64,000 bases of DNA, taken from the NCBI RefSeq assembly GCF_041248615.1, contig NZ_CP158426.1; one strand, written 5' to 3'. This DNA comes from Escherichia coli. GTDB taxonomy: Bacteria > Pseudomonadota > Gammaproteobacteria > Enterobacterales > Enterobacteriaceae. Shown here one piece after another: positions 250 to 42,734 of this stretch. Position numbers and translations under genes: made by a program. The notes under the pieces were generated by a model, which saw nothing but the letters and a program-made list of their open reading frames with translations, searched no databases and was not told where the DNA came from. How positions within the stretch are numbered: position 1 is the first letter of the stretch; each line of letters starts with the position of its first letter.

Positions 250-296
250 TTTCTTATTCCTCTTTAAACCTGTCTGAACCGTTATCAACAGCGCAA

Positions 297-330
297 TAAA
301 AAAGCCCCCGGAAGGTGATCTTCCGGGGGC
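297..330 (-). terminator. his operon attenuator (rho-independent terminator hairpin)
   Basis: GC-rich perfect stem gcccccggaag/cttccgggggc with 5-nt loop followed by T-run on minus strand, between hisL and hisG. Confidence 0.8.
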
Positions 331-394
331 TTTCTCATGCGTTCATGCACCACTGGAAGATCTGAATGTCTTCCAGCACACATCGCCTGAAAGA

Positions 395-445
395 CTAGTC
401 AGGATGATGGTGATGATGGTGGTGTTTAAATTGAACGCGTGTCAT
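395..445 (-). CDS. hisL: his operon leader peptide (MTRVQFKHHHHHHHPD)
   Basis: 16-codon ORF with 7 consecutive His codons immediately upstream of attenuator hairpin and hisG. Confidence 0.9.
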   Translation of the reverse strand: MTRVQFKHHHHHHHPD

Positions 446-3112: not shown

Positions 3113-3195
3113 AGAAAAATTATTATGACAAGCCTCTCATTCTCTTGTCATTTCCCCCCCATTTAGGCACAATGCGCCGCTGTCAAAAAATGACT

Positions 3196-3231
3196 AAAAA
3201 CCGACGTTTCATCAGCGTCGGTTATTTTTTG
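3196..3231 (+). terminator. rho-independent terminator after yeeY
   Basis: ccgacg-tttcatcag-cgtcgg hairpin followed by ttattttttg. Confidence 0.6.
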
Positions 3232-3378
3232 CTTCAAACCAATCATTCATACCAAGAGGCCGGGCTTCGTACCGGATAGATATTTACTAAAAATCGACAG
3301 TTGTTGTCGCTGAGGAATCCAAAAAAATGGGGCAATTTTTTGCTTACGCGACGGTTATCACCGTAAAGGAGAATGACC

Positions 3379-25761: not shown

Positions 25762-26042
25762 GGGTTAATTCCCTTTGGTAAGATTTTTTCGACATCGGTA
25801 TGTGGGCGGGGAATAACATGTACGGCTTTTACTTCGCCGACGTTACGCGCAGCTGCGGCACCTGCGTCTGTTGCCGCTTTTACCGCCCCGACATCACCAC
25901 GAACGATGACGGTCACCAGCCCGGAACCTATTTTTTCGTAGCCGACCAGCAAAACATTTGCCGACTTCACCATGGCGTCTGCGGCCTCTATGGCGGCAGT
26001 TAAGCCTTTGGTTTCTACCATTCCTAACGCTTCTTGTTGCAT
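25758..26042 (-). CDS. pduA: BMC shell protein PduA
   Basis: 94-aa canonical [34 protein letters not shown]...; first gene of operon. Confidence 0.92.
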
Positions 26043-26553
26043 AAAGACCTCGCCTGGATTTTTTTGACGATATGACTATAAAAAAAAGCGAGGAAAAAGA
26101 ATGGCTGACTTAATCGGCTAATGAGAAAAATTAATAGAGAACAAATATTATAAAATTGCTTTTATGAACTATATGTTGTTAATTTATTAGTTGTTTTGTG
26201 GATATTTCAATGTGAATTAATTGCGTTGGCTAGTGAGTTTAATCGCGAGTAATATTTCGTTGAGTTTAGTTCGAGGAAGGAACTGTGATATTTGTTTCAA
26301 TTTTATTATATCATGATGGCAATTTTTTATTGTGAAAGTTTGACAGTAATTATTACTTTCAACACTGATTAACGCTGTGTTGCATGATTCGGCAATGACA
26401 ATAATTTGTTATGTTAGCACGATTTTTACACGAGTCTGTCATGCATGTTGGCAATATTTTCTGCAGAGCAATTTTTTATAGTTGCGCTCGGTATACACAA
26501 CAATCAGCGCATAGTTGGCTGATAAAGAAAAACTCCGTAAAGAAGGTGTCACT
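26043..26553. promoter_or_regulatory. divergent pdu / pduF-pocR control region
   Basis: 510-bp AT-rich non-coding interval between divergently oriented pduA and pduF; in Salmonella this interval carries PocR-, CRP- and IHF-dependent promoters. Confidence 0.6.
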
Positions 26554-27363
26554 ATGAATGATTCACTCAAGGCGCAATGCGTTGCCGAGTTTTTAGGCAC
26601 CGGACTGTTCCTCTTTTTTGGCATTGGTTGTTTGTGCGCCCTGAAAGTTGCCGGGGCAAGTCTGGGACTGTGGGAAATTTGTATCATTTGGGGGTTAGGG
26701 ATTTCGCTTGCTGTTTACCTTACGGCAGGTATTTCCGGCGCTCATCTCAACCCGGCAGTTACCATTGCTCTGTGGCTGTTTGCCTCTTTCCCAGCCCGTA
26801 AAGTGCTGCCATTTTGTGTGGCGCAATTAGCGGGTGCTTTTGGTGGTGCGATTCTGGCATATTCTCTCTACAGCAGTTTATTTACCGATTTTGAATCTGC
26901 TCACAATATGGTGCGTGGTAGCGCAGAAAGTTTACAACTCGCCAGTATCTTCAGTACTTATCCGGCAGCGGCGATTAATGTATGGCAAGCTGCGTTGGTC
27001 GAAGTGGTCATAACGTCCATGTTAATGGGGTTGATTATGGCGTTGACCGATGACGGTAATGGCGTACCCAAAGGACCACTTGCGCCTTTACTTATTGGTA
27101 TTCTGGTTGCTGTTATTGGTGCTTCTACCGGACCATTAACCGGTTTTGCCATGAATCCAGCGCGTGATTTTGGACCTAAGATTTTCACCTGGCTTGCGGG
27201 GTGGGGAGAAATTGCGATGACTGGTGGACGCAATATTCCTTATTTCATTGTACCCATTATTGCACCGATCATTGGGGCATGTGTTGGTGCGGCGATTTAT
27301 CGCTATCTCATTGCAAAGAATTTACCTGTCAATAGTGTAGCGCCTAAAGAAATTAGCGAATAA
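26554..27363 (+). CDS. pduF: propanediol diffusion facilitator (MIP/aquaglyceroporin family)
   Basis: Two NPA motifs (HLNPAVT, AMNPARD); start placed at MNDSLKAQ (ORF track extends 13 codons upstream); start uncertain. Confidence 0.85.
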   Translation: MNDSLKAQCVAEFLGTGLFLFFGIGCLCALKVAGASLGLWEICIIWGLGISLAVYLTAGISGAHLNPAVTIALWLFASFPARKVLPFCVAQLAGAFGGAILAYSLYSSLFTDFESAHNMVRGSAESLQLASIFSTYPAAAINVWQAALVEVVITSMLMGLIMALTDDGNGVPKGPLAPLLIGILVAVIGASTGPLTGFAMNPARDFGPKIFTWLAGWGEIAMTGGRNIPYFIVPIIAPIIGACVGAAIYRYLIAKNLPVNSVAPKEISE

Positions 27364-27565
27364 CGAAATAATCTGGCAGTTATAAACGTTTATTTTTTTA
27401 CTGTTTGTGATCTGCTTTCCGAACTTATTAAAAAGTCTCCCGCTTCATGGAGGCTTTTGTTATTGTCCTTTGTGCTTCTCGTCAGTAAATCATCAGGGAT
27501 GATGTGAAGATTAAATGTAAAACAATTGTTTTGCTATAACAATAAATTAACTGGGAGGTTTTATC

Positions 27566-28480
27566 ATGATTTCTGCGGCGACACTTAATTCAGAACTCAT
27601 TAATAAAATCGCGCAGGATTTTGCGCAGGCGACCAGCCTTGCGGTTGTCGTGGTCAATATTCACGGCGATGAAATTTCCGAGCTGTTTAACTTCACTCCA
27701 TTTTGTCAGATGATGCGGCAACACCCTCAGCTAAGCACTCGATGTCGCATGAGCGATCGTTGTGGGGGCCTGGAAGCCTCTAAATCCGATCAGCCTTGTA
27801 TTTATCGCTGTCATGCCGGATTAACCGATTTCTCTATTCCACTGGTAATCGCCGGGCATTTAGTCGGTTTTGTATTGTGCGGGCAAGTTCGTCTGCGTAA
27901 TGATGATGTCGATTTGGTCGATATTCTGAATGTCGATGATTGCTGGCAGGCAGATCCCGAATTACTTAATGAATTCCGCAAAGTTCCTGAGATGGATTAC
28001 TCAAGAGTTATGGCCTCTGCTGATTTGTTGAAGTTGATTGTGGAAAATTGCCTCAAAAAACAACTCAATTTTGTGGTTATTAAAGAGAACAAATTTCAGT
28101 CAGATTCGGTGCGCCAGACTCGTGCGCCTAATCCCCACGACAATAAAATGAAAAAAGCTTTACGCTATATTGATGCGCATTTATCAGACGATTTGCGTCT
28201 GGAAGATGTCGCCTCGCACGTTTATCTAAGTCCTTATTATTTCAGTAAGTTATTCAAGAAATACCATGGAATCGGTTTTAATGCGTGGGTAAACCAACAA
28301 CGGATGGCCAGCGCTCGTGAGTTACTGTGCCATAGTGACTGGAGCATCGCCAGTATTGCGCGTAATTTAGGTTTTTCGCAAACCAGTTATTTTTGCAAAG
28401 TTTTCCGTCAGACTTATCAGGTTACGCCGCAGGTGTATCGACAGCAAGTGAGTGAAAATGCGGTGATGGAAACGGTATAG
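27566..28480 (+). CDS. pocR: AraC-family regulator of pdu/cob expression PocR
   Basis: 304-aa ORF, C-terminal AraC-type HTH (YLSPYYFSKLFKKYHGIGFNAWVNQQRM...), position next to pduF. Confidence 0.88.
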   Translation: MISAATLNSELINKIAQDFAQATSLAVVVVNIHGDEISELFNFTPFCQMMRQHPQLSTRCRMSDRCGGLEASKSDQPCIYRCHAGLTDFSIPLVIAGHLVGFVLCGQVRLRNDDVDLVDILNVDDCWQADPELLNEFRKVPEMDYSRVMASADLLKLIVENCLKKQLNFVVIKENKFQSDSVRQTRAPNPHDNKMKKALRYIDAHLSDDLRLEDVASHVYLSPYYFSKLFKKYHGIGFNAWVNQQRMASARELLCHSDWSIASIARNLGFSQTSYFCKVFRQTYQVTPQVYRQQVSENAVMETV

Positions 28481-28584
28481 AGTAAATGCCCCAAAAAAAG
28501 AGGACGGTTTAAATAAACTCTGCAATGAATAATTAACGTTATTTACCTGTTATGGGAAAAGTGAAATCAGCTCATAACATACGC

Positions 28585-28735
28585 TGACAGGTGTGGCACA
28601 TTTGTGCCTGGGAAGAGGGTGAAAATCCCTCGCAGCCCCCGCTGCTGTAATGCTGACAAACCCGAAAATGCCACTGATCGCGAGATTGGGAAGGTCGGGA
28701 GAGGATGACGCTAAGCCAGAAGACCAGCCAGTCAG
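28585..28735 (+). promoter_or_regulatory. cobalamin (adenosylcobalamin) riboswitch
   Basis: Conserved core gggaagagggtgaaaatccctcgcagcccccgctgctgtaa and B12-box-like gccactg...gggaaggtcgg...agccagaagaccagcc; same position as the Salmonella cob operon leader. Confidence 0.75.
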
Positions 28736-28964
28736 TCAATACCAACAACTTCGGTGGGAAGTGGGTTGCCCGGAAGCGTCCGGTAGAGTACCGGCGCGTC
28801 TTTATACCCCTACCACCCTGAAAGGATCAGGGTATGGCGGCATCATTTAGTTCTTTCATCGCAGTGCCGACAGGCACCAGGGCTGCACTTAAGGTGTGGC
28901 AATCTTGTTTCATGGCTCATCAACCAGACCGCCATTACAGGAAACTAAGTGGAGGGCGAGAGGC

Positions 28965-29402
28965 ATGAAAACGATAAAACCCGAATCGATAGCTCTTTTT
29001 TGCCTCTTATCTGGAGATGTGGATCTGGCGAAACATTTGGCTGAAATATTGCCAATAACTTGTTTTGTTGGTGAGGACTGGCAGCAAGATTTCCAGCCTC
29101 TTGACGGTGGGCCTGTGCAATCGTTATCAGATGTGTATGGCGATTATTCAGTGCTGCTATTGATAGCAGCTGAAAGCGAGATATCCGTACCAGAATGGCT
29201 CGCTCATTCTGAAGGAACGACGGTAATTGTGATTGCAGAACACAATACCCGTTTGCTGACTGGTCCGGCTGGTGGGGCTGTAGCATTGATCCATTATCTG
29301 AATGAAATCTGTCATTCCAGAGAAACCGCTGTCAATGACGCATTTTGTCGTACGTTAACACGAGGAAGTCTGGCTATTCCGCAATGCCATCTTCTTTCGT
29401 AA
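28965..29402 (+). CDS. hypothetical protein (146 aa) between B12 riboswitch and cobU
   Basis: ORF with SD-like gagagg 3 nt before ATG at 28965 (ORF track starts at 28896); no family recognised by eye. Confidence 0.45.
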   Translation: MKTIKPESIALFCLLSGDVDLAKHLAEILPITCFVGEDWQQDFQPLDGGPVQSLSDVYGDYSVLLLIAAESEISVPEWLAHSEGTTVIVIAEHNTRLLTGPAGGAVALIHYLNEICHSRETAVNDAFCRTLTRGSLAIPQCHLLS

Positions 29403-29535
29403 TGGATTGAGAATGCTGGATTTTTAATTATATTACGCGCAGTATTAATCGCGTAAATGTTTTGCGGTCAGCAACGGTGGGGGATCCATTGTTCTGTTCA
29501 ATGAATACCATCATACAATTGAATCAGGAGTCGGT

Positions 29536-30081
29536 ATGATGATTTTGGTGACAGGTGGAGCACGGAGCGGGAAGAGTCGCCACGCAGAGGCGCTTATTGG
29601 GGACTCTTCACAGGTTCTGTATATCGCCACCTCGCAAATCCTTGATGATGAGATGGCTGCACGGATAGAACATCATCGGCAAGGCCGCCCGGCGCACTGG
29701 CGCACGGTGGAGCGCTGGCAACATCTTGATGAATTAATTCATGCAGACATTAACCCGCATGAAGCTGTGTTGCTGGAATGCGTTACAACAATGGTGACTA
29801 ATCTGTTGTTTGATTATGGCGGCGATAAAGACCCTGATGAATGGGATTATCAGGCGATGGAACAGGCGATTAATGCTGAGATTCAGTCGTTGATTGCTGC
29901 CTGCCAACGTTGCCCCGCGAAGATTGTATTAGTGACTAACGAAGTGGGAATGGGGATTGTGCCGGAGAGTCGTCTGGCACGACATTTTCGTGATATTGCC
30001 GGGCGGGTAAATCAGCAGCTGGCCGCTGCGGCAAATGAAGTGTGGCTGGTGGTTTCGGGTATTGGAGTAAAAATCAAATGA
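29536..30081 (+). CDS. cobU: adenosylcobinamide kinase / adenosylcobinamide-phosphate guanylyltransferase
   Basis: 181-aa ORF with P-loop [10 protein letters not shown]. Confidence 0.92.
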
Positions 30082-30821
30082 GTAAATTATTTTGGGCGAT
30101 GCTCTCTTTTATTACGCGTCTGCCTGTGCCGCGTCGCTGGTCCCAGGGACTGGATTTCGAGCATTATTCTCGCGGTATTATTACTTTTCCTTTAATTGGT
30201 TTATTGCTTGGCGCGATTAGCGGGCTGGTCTTCATGGCGTTGCAGGCATGGTTTGGCGTACCACTGGCGGCACTGTTTAGCGTGCTGGTGCTGGCGCTGA
30301 TGACCGGGGGATTCCACCTGGACGGCCTCGCCGATACCTGTGATGGCGTATTTTCTGCACGTAGCCGCGATCGCATGTTGGAAATCATGCGTGATAGCCG
30401 TTTAGGCACCCACGGCGGTCTGGCATTGATTTTTGTTGTACTGGCAAAGATTCTGGTGTTAAGCGAGCTGGCTTTGCGTGGCGAACCGATCCTTGCATCG
30501 CTGGCGGCAGCATGCGCGGTCAGCCGCGGGACTGCCGCATTATTGATGTATCGTCATCGTTATGCCCGGGAAGAAGGACTTGGCAATGTGTTCATTGGCA
30601 AAATTGATGGGCGACAAACCTGCGTCACACTCGGCTTAGCCGCTATTTTTGCTGCCGTATTATTGCCGGGTATGCATGGTGTGGCTGCTATGGTGGTGAC
30701 GATGGTGGCGATTTTCATCCTCGGTCAGCTTCTCAAACGTACGCTGGGCGGGCAAACCGGCGATACGCTGGGAGCAGCCATAGAGCTTGGTGAACTGGTC
30801 TTCCTGCTGGCACTGCTATAA
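30078..30821 (+). CDS. cobS: adenosylcobinamide-GDP ribazoletransferase (cobalamin synthase)
   Basis: 247 codons from [18 protein letters not shown]; polytopic membrane protein; overlaps cobU stop. Confidence 0.9.
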
Positions 30822-30832
30822 AGAGACGTGAC

Positions 30833-31912
30833 ATGCAAATACTTGCCGATTTACTGAATACGATCCCAGCCATCGATCCTACCGCTATGTCGCGTGCACA
30901 ACGGCATATTGACGGGTTACTCAAACCTGTTGGTAGCCTGGGAAAGCTGGAGGCGCTTGCCATACAACTGGCGGGAATGCCGGGGTTGAATGGCATACCG
31001 CATGTGGGCAAAAAAGCGGTACTGGTTATGTGTGCCGATCACGGCGTCTGGGAGGAAGGGGTCGCTATTTCCCCAAAAGAAGTGACAGCCATTCAGGCTG
31101 AAAATATGACCCGCGGAACAACCGGCGTGTGTGTGCTGGCAGCACAAGCGGGCGCTAACGTCCACGTAATTGATGTTGGTATTGATACTGCTGAGCCTAT
31201 CCCCGGGCTTATCAACATGCGTGTCGCACGAGGTAGCGGCAATATTGCTTCAGCTCCGGCAATGAGTCGCCGTCAGGCTGAAAAGTTGCTTTTGGTCGTC
31301 ATATGTTATACGCGGGAGCTGGCAAAAAACGGTGTCACGCTGTTTGGTGTAGGTGAACTGGGGATGGCAAACACGACACCGGCAGCGGCAATAGTCAGCA
31401 CAATCACTGGCCGGGATCCTGAAGAAGTGGTTGGGATTGGCGCAAACCTGCCGACAGATAAACTGGCTAATAAAATTGATGTTGTGCGTCGGGCGATTAC
31501 GTTGAATCAACCAAATCCTCAGGATGGTGTTGATGTCCTGGCAAAAGTGGGTGGATTTGATTTGGTCGGAATAGCTGGAGTGATGTTAGGTGCTGCTTCC
31601 TGCGGTTTACCCGTGTTGCTGGATGGATTTCTTTCTTATGCTGCTGCGCTCGCAGCCTGCCAGATGTCTCCTGCAATCAAACCGTATCTCATTCCTTCTC
31701 ACTTGTCGGCAGAAAAAGGCGCGCGTATAGCGCTGTCGCATTTGGGGCTGGAGCCTTATCTCAATATGGATATGCGTTTAGGTGAGGGGAGTGGTGCAGC
31801 TCTGGCGATGCCCATCATCGAAGCTGCTTGTGCGATATACAACAACATGGGCGAACTTGCTGCCAGTAATATTGTTCTACCGGGGAATACGACTTCTGAT
31901 TTGAACAGTTAA
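30833..31912 (+). CDS. cobT: nicotinate-nucleotide:dimethylbenzimidazole phosphoribosyltransferase
   Basis: 359-aa [35 protein letters not shown]... Confidence 0.92.
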
Positions 31913-31976
31913 AAACGAAAAGTCTGATAAAAGCTATACTTAACCGATAGCTTTCGCGACTTAGGAAAGGGACATG

Positions 31977-32909
31977 ATGCGTCGTGTAAATATTTTTTGC
32001 TCATTTGCTCTACTTTTTGCCAGCCATAATAGCCTGGCGGTAACTTATCCATTACCTCCAGAGGGTAGCCGTTTAGTGGGACAGTCGCTTACTGTAACTG
32101 TTCCTGATCACAATACCCAGCCGCTGGAGACTTTTGCCGCACAATACGGGCAAGGGTTAAGTAACATGCTGGAAGCGAATCCGGGCGCTGATATTTTCTT
32201 GCCGAAGTCAGGCTCGCAACTCACCATTCCGCAGCAACTGATTTTGCCCGCCACTATTCGTAAAGGGATTGTGGTTAACGTCGCTGAGATGCGTCTTTAT
32301 TACTACCCACCAGACAGTAATTCTGTGGAAGTCTTTCCTATTGGTATCGGCCAGGCTGGGCGAGAAACCCCGCGTAACTGGGTGACTACCGTTGAACGTA
32401 AACAAGAAGCACCAACCTGGACGCCAACGCCGAACACCCGGCGCGAATATGCGAAACGAGGGGAGAGTTTGCCCGCATTTGTTCCTGCGGGGCCTGATAA
32501 TCCCATGGGGCTGTATGCGATTTATATTGGCAGGCTATATGCCATCCACGGTACCAATGCCAATTTTGGTATTGGGCTCCGGGTAAGTCAGGGCTGTATT
32601 CGTCTGCGCAATGACGATATCAAATATCTGTTTGATAATGTTCCTGTAGGTACTCGTGTACAAATTATTGATCAGCCAGTGAAATACACAACGGAACCGG
32701 ATGGATCAAAGTGGCTGGAAGTTCATGAGCCGCTGTCGCGCAATCGTGCTGAATATGAGTCTGACCGAAAAGTGCCATTGCCGGTAACCCCATCTTTGCG
32801 GGCGTTTATCAACGGGCAAGAAGTTGATGTGAATCGCGCAAATGCTGCGTTGCAACGTCGATCGGGAATGCCTGTGCAAATTAGTTCTGGTTCAAGACAG
32901 ATGTTTTAA
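31977..32909 (+). CDS. ldtA: L,D-transpeptidase (ErfK/YbiS/YcfS/YnhG family)
   Basis: Signal peptide, LysM-like region and catalytic motif [20 protein letters not shown]; start at second Met. Confidence 0.88.
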
Positions 32910-32919
32910 GAGCGTTGGT

Positions 32920-32950
32920 AATTAGAAAGCAAAAAGCCTGCTTGAAAGCA
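32920..32950. terminator. bidirectional terminator between ldtA and asnV
   Basis: aaaaagcctgcttgaaagcaggcttttttg hairpin flanked by A/T runs. Confidence 0.6.
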
Positions 32951-32964
32951 GGCTTTTTTGAATT

Positions 32965-33040
32965 TGGCTCCTCTGACTGGACTCGAACCAGTGACATACG
33001 GATTAACAGTCCGCCGTTCTACCGACTGAACTACAGAGGA
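32965..33040 (-). tRNA. asnV: tRNA-Asn (GUU)
   Basis: 76-nt sequence on minus strand tcctctgtagttcagtcggtagaacggcggactgttaatccg...gagcca with anticodon loop cuGUUaa. Confidence 0.95.
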
Positions 33041-40650: not shown

Positions 40651-41416
40651 GAATCCCTCTGCAACAAAAACAAACAGTCTCCGGCGTGTGCTTTTTGGCT
40701 GCGCCAGAACGATACCTTTACGCCGGAGTGGTAGTTTGTTGAGGTTTAGGGAGTTTCAGGCTGTACGCAGTACAGACTGCCTGCGAAGCAGGAGTGTCTC
40801 CGGGGCTTCTTGCCCCCCTCGGTATCGATCTTTTTCTCCTTTACTCTTAGCTGACAGCGGCCCCAAAGGGCATGTCAGACGGCGGAAATATGGCGCAGGC
40901 CAGAACTGGCGCGGCTTGTGGCGGTGAGTTGTGCGGCGTCACTTTGCTTTTTCGCTGGCGCGACCAAAGTGACGCCTCGTCTGGTGCAGGGGGTAAACGT
41001 TACGTTTCTGGTGCAGGGTGACGGTCACGCGGCAGCAAAGCCTGACGGCAATGCAGGCCGCAGCCCGTCAATGTAAGGCGCTGGTTGTCAGCAGAAGATA
41101 AAACCCGGCAAAGCCAGAGTGTCAGCCCGTAAAGCCGGGTATCTGGTGCAGTGATGGTGTATATGTACGTCAGTCTCAGATGCAGGTATTTTTGCATCCC
41201 CGGCGTTTTCAGAGATCAACGCCGGTAAAGGATGCCATGCTGGCGAAGCCAGGCGCTTCTTTCAGACGTGAAGCGACAAAGGGACTGCCCGGAGGCAGTT
41301 TGTTGCAGGCGGGAGACTGCGCCATTATTTCTGGTGCAGGAAGGAAAAACTGTTTCCGGGTTTAAAAGATTGTTTGCTTACCTGGTGACGGAAAAACTGC
41401 CGCGCTTCGCTTGTCT

Positions 41417-42213: not shown

Positions 42214-42734
42214 AAGGCCGTCTACAGTGAGTGATAAATATTCCAGCCACTGGAGAGGCTAATCTCACGGGTGGTGGAACCGGACGGGGTTAGCCTTACC
42301 AGCCTCACTGACACTGGCGCGTCTTTCGACGCCCCCGCCCGATCCCGCCATTGAGATGAGACCGTGCGCGACACACAAATATTGTATCGTCAGTGAGGAT
42401 CTTCAGGAGGCTAATCCCGACGCCTGATTTTGCAGGCGCGGCGCAACAATACAATGTTCGGTAATTTTCAGCAAGAGGTTTAGCGGAAGCAGACGCACAG
42501 GAAAATACAATCACGCGATAAATATTAAATACAATTATATTTATATAAAATATATATTGAGCAATATGCAGACACTTTCCAGTAAATATCCTGTCAGTTA
42601 ATTCGTCCCGTTGATATCAGTCAAAAAAATAAATGTAAAAAGAGCGTATTTCGTTTCATACAGTAACGTTATTTATCATTTTGTCCGGTGTCGCCAGCAT
42701 CAGGCCAGATGAACCATAAAAAAGGATATCAGCG

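Follow-up and report, generated by a model that had tools for sequence, protein, structure and literature searches.

In Salmonella, control of the cob operon acts at the translation of cbiA, and the hairpin of the expression platform sequesters the ribosome-binding site. The gene order pduF-pocR-[cbi]-cobUST-ldtA is common to Salmonella, Citrobacter, and the Escherichia coli DNA analyzed here, a stretch of 64,000 nt from contig NZ_CP158426.1 (RefSeq assembly GCF_041248615.1) to which we refer as the window. All cbi-positive enterobacteria that were sampled encode a normal CbiG of 351-366 aa ~7.5 kb downstream of pocR. CbiG is the cobalt-precorrin-5A hydrolase, which opens the delta-lactone and releases acetaldehyde (PMC7242693). 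In the window, the order of genes is pduB, pduA (minus strand), pduF, pocR, the riboswitch aptamer, a short open reading frame (henceforth the ORF), cobU, cobS, cobT, and ldtA (table 1).

In the AIEC strain LF82, the gene LF82_328, which is annotated as "CbiG" and adjoins LF82_329 (PocR) and LF82_330 (PduF), is transcribed at RPKM values of 16.7 and 13.0, which exceed those for pocR and the pdu genes; the study treats it only as a marker transcript, in culture (PMC4509574). We infer from gene order, not from sequence comparison, that LF82_328 corresponds to the ORF, and the entry in the LF82 table was the only description of this relic found in the literature. In databases the ORF is already labelled, loosely, as "cobalamin biosynthesis protein" or CbiG. 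RefSeq contains exactly this CDS in strain XJ6.1, which is 100% identical to the window across this region, as WP_001590270.1, a "hypothetical protein," and calls the ORF "cobalamin biosynthesis protein" in other strains.

Extent and Origin of the ORF

The ORF is an ATG...TAA frame encoding 145 aa. The original prediction, made from the DNA letters, had described it as a 146-codon frame with a plausible Shine-Dalgarno sequence and start, and the frame itself, a GGAGG located 10 nt 5' of the ATG, and the RefSeq CDS all agree with that description. A program-made list of ORFs starts the same frame further upstream at a GTG (28896); in protein alignments, the ATG is equivalent to Met1 of CbiG. 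The GC content had also been called normal, and this did not hold up: it is 45.2% compared with 49.3% for the window, and third-position GC (GC3) is 36%, as low as in the adjoining non-coding relic of cbiP. Among the copies of the relic ORF, GC3 is 36-44% compared with 63-68% in functional cbiG genes.

As references we used two complete pduF-pocR-cbiA...cbiP-cobUST-ldtA loci, one from Salmonella enterica and one from a Citrobacter sedlakii-type contig, and every protein of both loci was compared with positions 26001-33000 of the window by tblastn. Between pocR and cobU, the sole significant match is to residues 1-119 of CbiG at 28965-29300 (43% identity and e value 5e-20 for Salmonella, 46% and 1.5e-22 for Citrobacter), and no other cbi coding sequence is detectable there with any of the reference Cbi proteins. 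No family had been recognizable in the ORF by eye, but database searches do identify CbiG: in BLASTP the ORF matches a full-length CbiG containing the CbiG_N, CbiG_mid, and CbiG_C domains (36% identity over 119 residues, e value 8e-19), and residues 1-118 match positions 1-125 of the 351 positions in the NCBIfam CbiG equivalog model NF004463 (e value 6e-19) with a score of 68.4 bits, below the curated cut-off of 546 bits. At the nucleotide level, the ORF is 69% identical to cbiG from C. sedlakii over 106 nt (blastn), and a weak colinear match at 29311-29339 extends the cbiG homology to codon ~137. On the basis of these alignments, we regard the origin of the ORF as a relic of the 5' part of cbiG as secure and very nearly certain. 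In Salmonella CbiG, the Pfam N, mid, and C domains span residues 54-134, 140-218, and 231-347, respectively. Because the homology ends at approximately residue 137, at the boundary between the N and mid domains, the ORF comprises the whole N-terminal domain and nothing else; CbiG_mid and CbiG_C are gone with the deleted remainder of cbiG, leaving 145 aa compared with 351 aa.

The N-terminal domain has diverged considerably. A Pfam scan of the ORF gave no match at e values up to 10, its score lying below the gathering score of CbiG_N (PF11760), and scans of the versions from Escherichia fergusonii, Escherichia albertii, Escherichia sp., and "Enterobacteriaceae bacterium RIT691" gave no match at e values up to 1; Salmonella CbiG scores 122.5 bits against the same model. 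In 51 functional CbiG N-domains the motifs GATG, DPAVVVIDE, SGH, and GGAN do not vary; the ORF has other residues in their place. An AF2 model of moderate confidence (pLDDT 75) was obtained, and it leans on genuine CbiG sequences in its alignment; with 12 close orthologs alone, the model was too poor for use (pLDDT 59). A sequence search of the PDB with the ORF returned only noise (e values of 0.6 or more), and a Foldseek search of the model against the PDB found nothing at an e value of 0.001 or less. With two of the three domains gone and no substrate-making enzyme left, hydrolase activity is not expected, and the ORF would have lost its cobalt-precorrin-5A hydrolase role.

The original prediction had allowed for a remnant or fusion left by deletion of the cbi genes and had named cbiA and cbiP as the genes to search for. 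A remnant it is in kind, but its source is the 5' third of cbiG. In favor of an ORF built from cbiA 5' and cbiP 3' coding sequence, the start of cbiA and the 3' end of cbiP do adjoin it, and its stop codon sits at the edge of the cbiP-derived DNA. Codons 1-119, however, correspond to CbiG, and tblastn with the CbiA and CbiP proteins from Salmonella and Citrobacter gave no match in the frame of the ORF; at e values up to 1, there was only one noise-level match in another frame. A cbiA/cbiP origin of the body of the ORF is refuted by these searches and can hardly be entertained any longer, and the same absence of CbiA/CbiP similarity agrees with the earlier observation that CobQ/CbiA amidotransferase motifs are lacking. 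No source could be detected for codons ~126-145, and the DNA derived from cbiP starts at the stop codon; the ORF is a fusion only at its tail.

Relics Flanking the ORF

On the 5' side, positions 28568-28842 are 82% identical to the Salmonella cob leader through the cbiA ATG, which corresponds to the ATG at 28834 in the window. This ATG opens a short upstream frame (uORF), in which 7 of the first 14 residues match CbiA (MAA..FI...TG). On the 3' side, the last ~147 nt of cbiP from Citrobacter and Salmonella are recognizable in the segment between the ORF and cobU (local alignment z scores of 19.5 and 15.5, respectively; 0 of 300 shuffles as good). A weak tblastn match to residues 454-478 of CbiP at 29383-29457 (e value 0.2) was accepted after this significant nucleotide alignment. 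Alignments of 28843-28964 to cbiA, cbiF, and cbiB-cbiT, and of 29340-29397 to cbiG, cbiP, and cbiH-cbiO, were no better than those of shuffled sequences. The C-terminal HYRKL of the uORF was also considered as the C-terminus of CbiF (HYSKL) and rejected as unsupported (z scores of -1.5 to 2.4 over seven species).

Table 1. Coordinates of Features in and around the ORF.
Feature	Position in window	Strand	Remarks
pocR, regulator of pdu/cob	27566-28480	+	RefSeq annotation; 90% identical to Salmonella and Citrobacter PocR
Cobalamin riboswitch aptamer	28572-28746	+	RF00174, 109.4 bits, full length
cob leader expression platform	28747-28833	+	Hairpin 28815-28833 covers the Shine-Dalgarno sequence that immediately precedes the cbiA start codon
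44-codon uORF	28834-28968	+	From the relic cbiA start codon; ATGA overlap with the ORF start
ORF	28965-29402	+	Near-certain cbiG 5' relic; would encode a diverged stand-alone CbiG N-terminal domain
Detectable cbiG homology within the ORF	28965-29339	+	CbiG codons 1 to ~137, ~8 codons missing internally
cbiP 3' relic, last ~140 nt	29398-29539	+	Includes the ATGA junction with cobU; now the ORF-cobU spacer
Promoter-like site TTGAGA-16-TATATT	29407-29434	+	Within the cbiP relic; possible own promoter of cobU
cobU (from 29536), cobS, cobT, nucleotide-loop assembly genes	29536-31912	+	RefSeq; 78-84% identical to Salmonella/Citrobacter CobUST

Judged against the Citrobacter and Salmonella loci, the locus reads as riboswitch, cbiA', cbiG', cbiP', and cobUST, the product of two deletions of ~6 kb and ~7.6 kb. 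In an ancestral operon of pocR, riboswitch, cbiA to cbiP, and cobUST, the smaller deletion extended from cbiA to cbiF and the larger one from the rest of cbiG through cbiP, stranding the 5' third of cbiG with its own start codon and Shine-Dalgarno sequence.

The relic of cbiP is kept in nearly all E. coli, K-12 included. The promoter-like site that it contains has 10 of 12 consensus matches, although shuffled sequences contain at least as many such sites as the region does. Because almost every E. coli retains the segment with this site, expression of cobUST is probably independent of the ORF; K-12, in which the ORF is destroyed, still uses cobUST.

The Rfam search of the window gave several further matches. 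An STnc230 sRNA (71 bits) lies at 27422-27505 on the minus strand, antisense to the pduF-pocR spacer, and is also matched in the loci of Salmonella, E. fergusonii, and E. albertii. The other matches are a His operon leader at 296-419 (minus strand), STnc240 at 3158-3232 (plus strand), three identical tRNAs at 32968, 35377, and 37198, EFASI RNA at 40706-40833 (minus strand), and C4 antisense RNA at 42267-42355 (minus strand), the last from a phage/satellite-type element further along the window.

Distribution of the Relic Module

The full relic module is present in 643-644 of 5426 complete E. coli genomes (12%). This equals the count for pocR (644), and the module always travels with pocR. In ~88% of E. 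coli genomes the ORF has been destroyed. K-12, O157:H7, O104:H4, and most other strains keep only its last ~50-55 codons and the cbiP relic, beside IS elements, and the piece remaining in K-12-type strains is called a pseudogene by PGAP. Another class of E. coli keeps codons 34-145, which abut a fragment of pduV. An example of this large, pdu-negative class is strain PSJ-12 (locus L004, 2707-3341), in which a deletion fuses the pduV fragment to codon 34 of the ORF; the 119-codon frame that remains has stayed open and carries a protein annotation on >1000 contigs.

Outside of E. coli, an intact ORF in the same arrangement was found in Escherichia whittamii, two further GTDB Escherichia species, Escherichia sp., E. 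albertii, and Escherichia marmotae. E. albertii has an intact relic ORF and only fragments of cobU, and it lacks cobT. The lone cobS in this species (locus L005, 10436-11877) is intact and under strong constraint (dN/dS 0.02), which is odd. The ORF in E. fergusonii (locus L009, 9488-20471) has 156 codons and 47% identity in an alignment that is uncertain in places, and cobUST is deleted; the riboswitch is kept (113 bits), the 156-aa form recurs across many assemblies, and a glycyl-radical-enzyme microcompartment locus lies beyond ldtA. In RIT691 (locus L066, 10874-12400), a more distant enterobacterium, a frame of 179 codons runs from the cbiA ATG straight into a highly diverged cbiG'. This cbiG' is ~30% identical to that in E. 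coli, again in an alignment that is uncertain in places, and keeps the original spacing of CbiG without the 8-codon deletion. The riboswitch is intact in RIT691, cobUST and ldtA are gone, and nac follows.

A word-indexed protein search with the ORF returned only Escherichia and Shigella copies. An exhaustive profile search returned 34 of 1.84 billion proteins, all of which are Escherichia short forms, enterobacterial CbiG, or low-complexity noise.

Several other loci encountered in this survey have a different character. In Hafnia paralvei ATCC 29927 (locus L059, 10900-17500), a different truncation is represented by a 118-aa cbiA'::'cbiF fusion ORF followed by a full-length cbiG; beyond cbiG there are two large minus-strand genes, helicase-like and ATPase-like, that resemble an inserted defence island, and no cbiH was found within 8 kb. 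Escherichia sp. MOD1-EC7003 has a complete cbi operon with Klebsiella-like sequences and a PocR 84% identical to that of E. coli, reflecting horizontal transfer or else an assembly that is misnamed or mixed. The metagenome-assembled genome "Citrobacter sp. HRGM_Genome_0066" (L011, L028) combines a relic contig of the E. coli type with a full operon of the Citrobacter type and is a mixed bin, and a 383-bp contig of Streptomyces cahuitamycinicus that is 98% identical to E. coli pocR is contamination.

Sequence Evolution of the ORF

Amino acid identity of the ORF between Escherichia species is 67-74% compared with 96-97% for PocR. The frame has nevertheless remained open: all nine loci lack stop codons and frameshifts, and its length is near constant, with 144-145 codons in the seven Escherichia loci. 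The sole indel within the ORF is 3 nt long, and the neighboring cbiP relic has indels of 1, 6, and 11 nt. To assess stop avoidance, observed substitution patterns were moved among sites with the same consensus base, a permutation that keeps phylogeny, composition, and mutation spectrum. The six Escherichia copies were all free of stops in 1 of 5000 permutations and, with E. fergusonii added, in 0 of 5000. When the analysis was rerun on loci found through pocR, which avoids choosing loci through the ORF itself, 37 of 10000 permutations were free of stops.

Pooled dN/dS (NG86) of the ORF is 0.47 (bootstrap 0.33-0.64). Permutation gave a null of 0.72 +/- 0.12, with 10 of 1000 permutations as low as the observed value, and the other two frames gave 0.73-0.76; the calibrated signal is modest (p about 0.01), the tests being self-devised (NG86/permutation) and applied to few lineages. 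The constraint varies along the frame, with dN/dS of 0.36 for codons 1-68 and 0.26 for codons 86-116 and a value >1 in the loop region of codons 69-85. Third-position divergence is greater than that at first and second positions in every pair of loci. Nucleotide divergence between lineages is 16-22% for the ORF and 11-27% for the non-coding cbiP relic. Among the marks of a neutral relic, truncation is present in the ORF, and stops, frameshifts, and a neutral dN/dS are absent.

The Riboswitch and Its Connection to the ORF

An intact cobalamin aptamer lies upstream of the ORF on the same strand. Between Escherichia lineages, the aptamer diverges by 5-7% and the platform by 3-9% as opposed to ~20% for the flanks, and the aptamer scores 103-113 bits against RF00174 in E. 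fergusonii, E. albertii, and RIT691. The platform hairpin has a predicted energy of -13.9 kcal/mol, which is not significant on its own (z score -1.4). It is conserved and covers the Shine-Dalgarno sequence and ATG of the uORF (28815-28836), not those of the ORF.

The uORF has exactly 44 codons in all seven Escherichia lineages despite 18-27% nucleotide divergence, and in E. fergusonii it has 49 codons and overlaps the ORF. Its stop avoidance by permutation is not significant alone (318 of 5000 and 2049 of 10000). The cbiA start is connected to cbiG' in every lineage by an ATGA overlap, a 20-nt overlap, or an in-frame fusion. Judged from this arrangement, a link between the ORF and the riboswitch would run through ATGA coupling with the uORF. 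The alternative raised in the original prediction, a distinct gene co-regulated by the riboswitch, misses the origin of the ORF in cbiG; as an account of its present status it may be right, as the frame has stayed open under weak purifying selection and the riboswitch 5' of it is conserved.

Possible Explanations for the Persistence of the ORF

The explanation that we favor, with a probability of about 0.5, is that the ORF encodes a still-translated, B12-repressed small protein that is weakly constrained and linked to the pocR/pdu locus. The uORF, by way of the ATGA at the start codon of the ORF, would link it to the riboswitch-controlled cbiA start and so place it under B12 control. The origin and anatomy of the ORF, its conserved open frame, its reduced dN/dS, and its transcription are observed; translation, B12 repression, and any function of the protein we infer. 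The ORF would then be a domesticated relic domain retained by selection and possibly handling corrinoids rather than an inert pseudogene. Retention is suggested by the open frame with its avoidance of stops, the single 3-nt indel, the reduced dN/dS, the transcription in LF82, and the intact riboswitch in E. fergusonii and RIT691, which have lost all of cobUST, and in E. albertii, which has lost cobU and cobT. Against it stand the extreme divergence, the replaced invariant motifs, the low GC3, the lack of a Pfam CbiG_N match, the loss in ~88% of E. coli, the modest size of the calibrated dN/dS signal, and the moderate confidence of the AF2 model. A more specific version, which we put forward tentatively, is that the CbiG N-domain was domesticated after loss of the B12 genes as a riboswitch-repressed small protein serving pocR/pdu rather than B12 synthesis, for example as a protein that binds corrinoids or passes them on, or one that conveys B12 status to the regulation of pdu. 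Such a role would account for the joint persistence of riboswitch, uORF, ORF, and pocR throughout the genus, including E. fergusonii, and in the more distant RIT691, although neither of these two has a cob gene left downstream.

Two other explanations have to be weighed against the favored one. The peptide could be irrelevant, with the uORF and ORF staying open solely so that ribosomes cover this stretch of ~570 nt and the decision of the riboswitch at the cbiA start is relayed to cobUST, untranslated RNA being terminated by Rho. Selection against stops that is much stronger than the constraint on amino acids is what such a role would leave, as are the ATGA coupling of uORF and ORF kept in all Escherichia, the fusion of the two frames in RIT691, and the conserved riboswitch and platform; the established control of Salmonella cob at cbiA translation and the strong constraint on cobS even in E. 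albertii point the same way. Yet E. fergusonii and RIT691 keep the riboswitch and an open ORF without any downstream cob gene, most E. coli have cobUST without the ORF, and a promoter-like site for cobU lies 3' of it; moreover, stop avoidance alone would not give a dN/dS that is below the neutral calibration and patterned along the domain. We rank this explanation second and consider it rather unlikely. Ranked third, and more doubtful, is a functionless fragment left between two deletions, open by chance and decaying. One domain of three is left, its catalytic-looking invariants are lost amid extreme divergence, its GC has drifted toward AT, its nucleotide divergence is similar to that of the non-coding cbiP relic, most E. 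coli have deleted it, and PGAP calls the K-12 piece a pseudogene, all as would be expected of decay. Chance is hard to reconcile with nine divergent loci that carry neither stops nor frameshifts (p about 2e-4 to 4e-3 by permutation) and with a frame that is still open in RIT691 at about 30% identity, and the restriction of indels to multiples of three, the excess of third-position divergence in every pair, and the dN/dS below its calibrated null likewise argue against it.

The analysis settles what replaces the cbi genes in pdu-positive E. coli, Crohn's-associated AIEC strains among them. What is left of the cob operon there is a compact fossil that would record two deletions predating the split of the Escherichia species, and it explains the small "cobalamin biosynthesis protein" pseudogene beside cobU in K-12. 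The new element is the evidence for maintenance: selection appears to keep the fossil ORF and its riboswitch, also in lineages with nothing B12-related downstream. Should this hold up, the locus would be a clear instance of a relic of a pathway put to new use, either as a small protein under riboswitch control or as a translated leader with a regulatory role, and it would provide a handle on the role of the CbiG N-terminal domain.

Comparison with Known Systems

The closest described counterpart of the ORF is CbiG from the cob operon of Salmonella, Citrobacter, and Klebsiella, to which it is homologous from Met1 to residue ~137 with 43-46% identity. The two share the start codon context, operon, strand, and upstream riboswitch. 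The ORF product may also adopt the N-domain fold, to judge from the moderately confident model. Unlike CbiG, the ORF product has 145 rather than 351 aa, lacks the mid and C-terminal domains and ~8 internal residues, has changed the family-invariant motifs, and falls below the NCBIfam and Pfam thresholds; the ORF does not lie between cbiF and cbiH in a cbi operon, and its locus encodes none of the enzymes that make or use the CbiG substrate.

Within E. coli, the same DNA makes up the "cobalamin biosynthesis protein" pseudogene upstream of cobU in K-12, O157:H7, O104:H4, and most other strains, which have the cbiP relic and the last ~50-55 codons of the ORF (92-96% identity). There, pdu, pocR, the riboswitch, the uORF, and the 5' part of the ORF have been lost to IS elements or deletions, whereas the ancestral form is complete in the window, as it is in 12% of E. 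coli. The ORF takes the same position as LF82_328 beside pocR and pduF. Compared with the cob leader in Salmonella, nucleotide identity is 82% over the aptamer, platform hairpin, and cbiA ATG, but the regulated start opens a 44-codon relic uORF coupled with the relic of cbiG instead of a 459-codon cbiA and 16 further genes.
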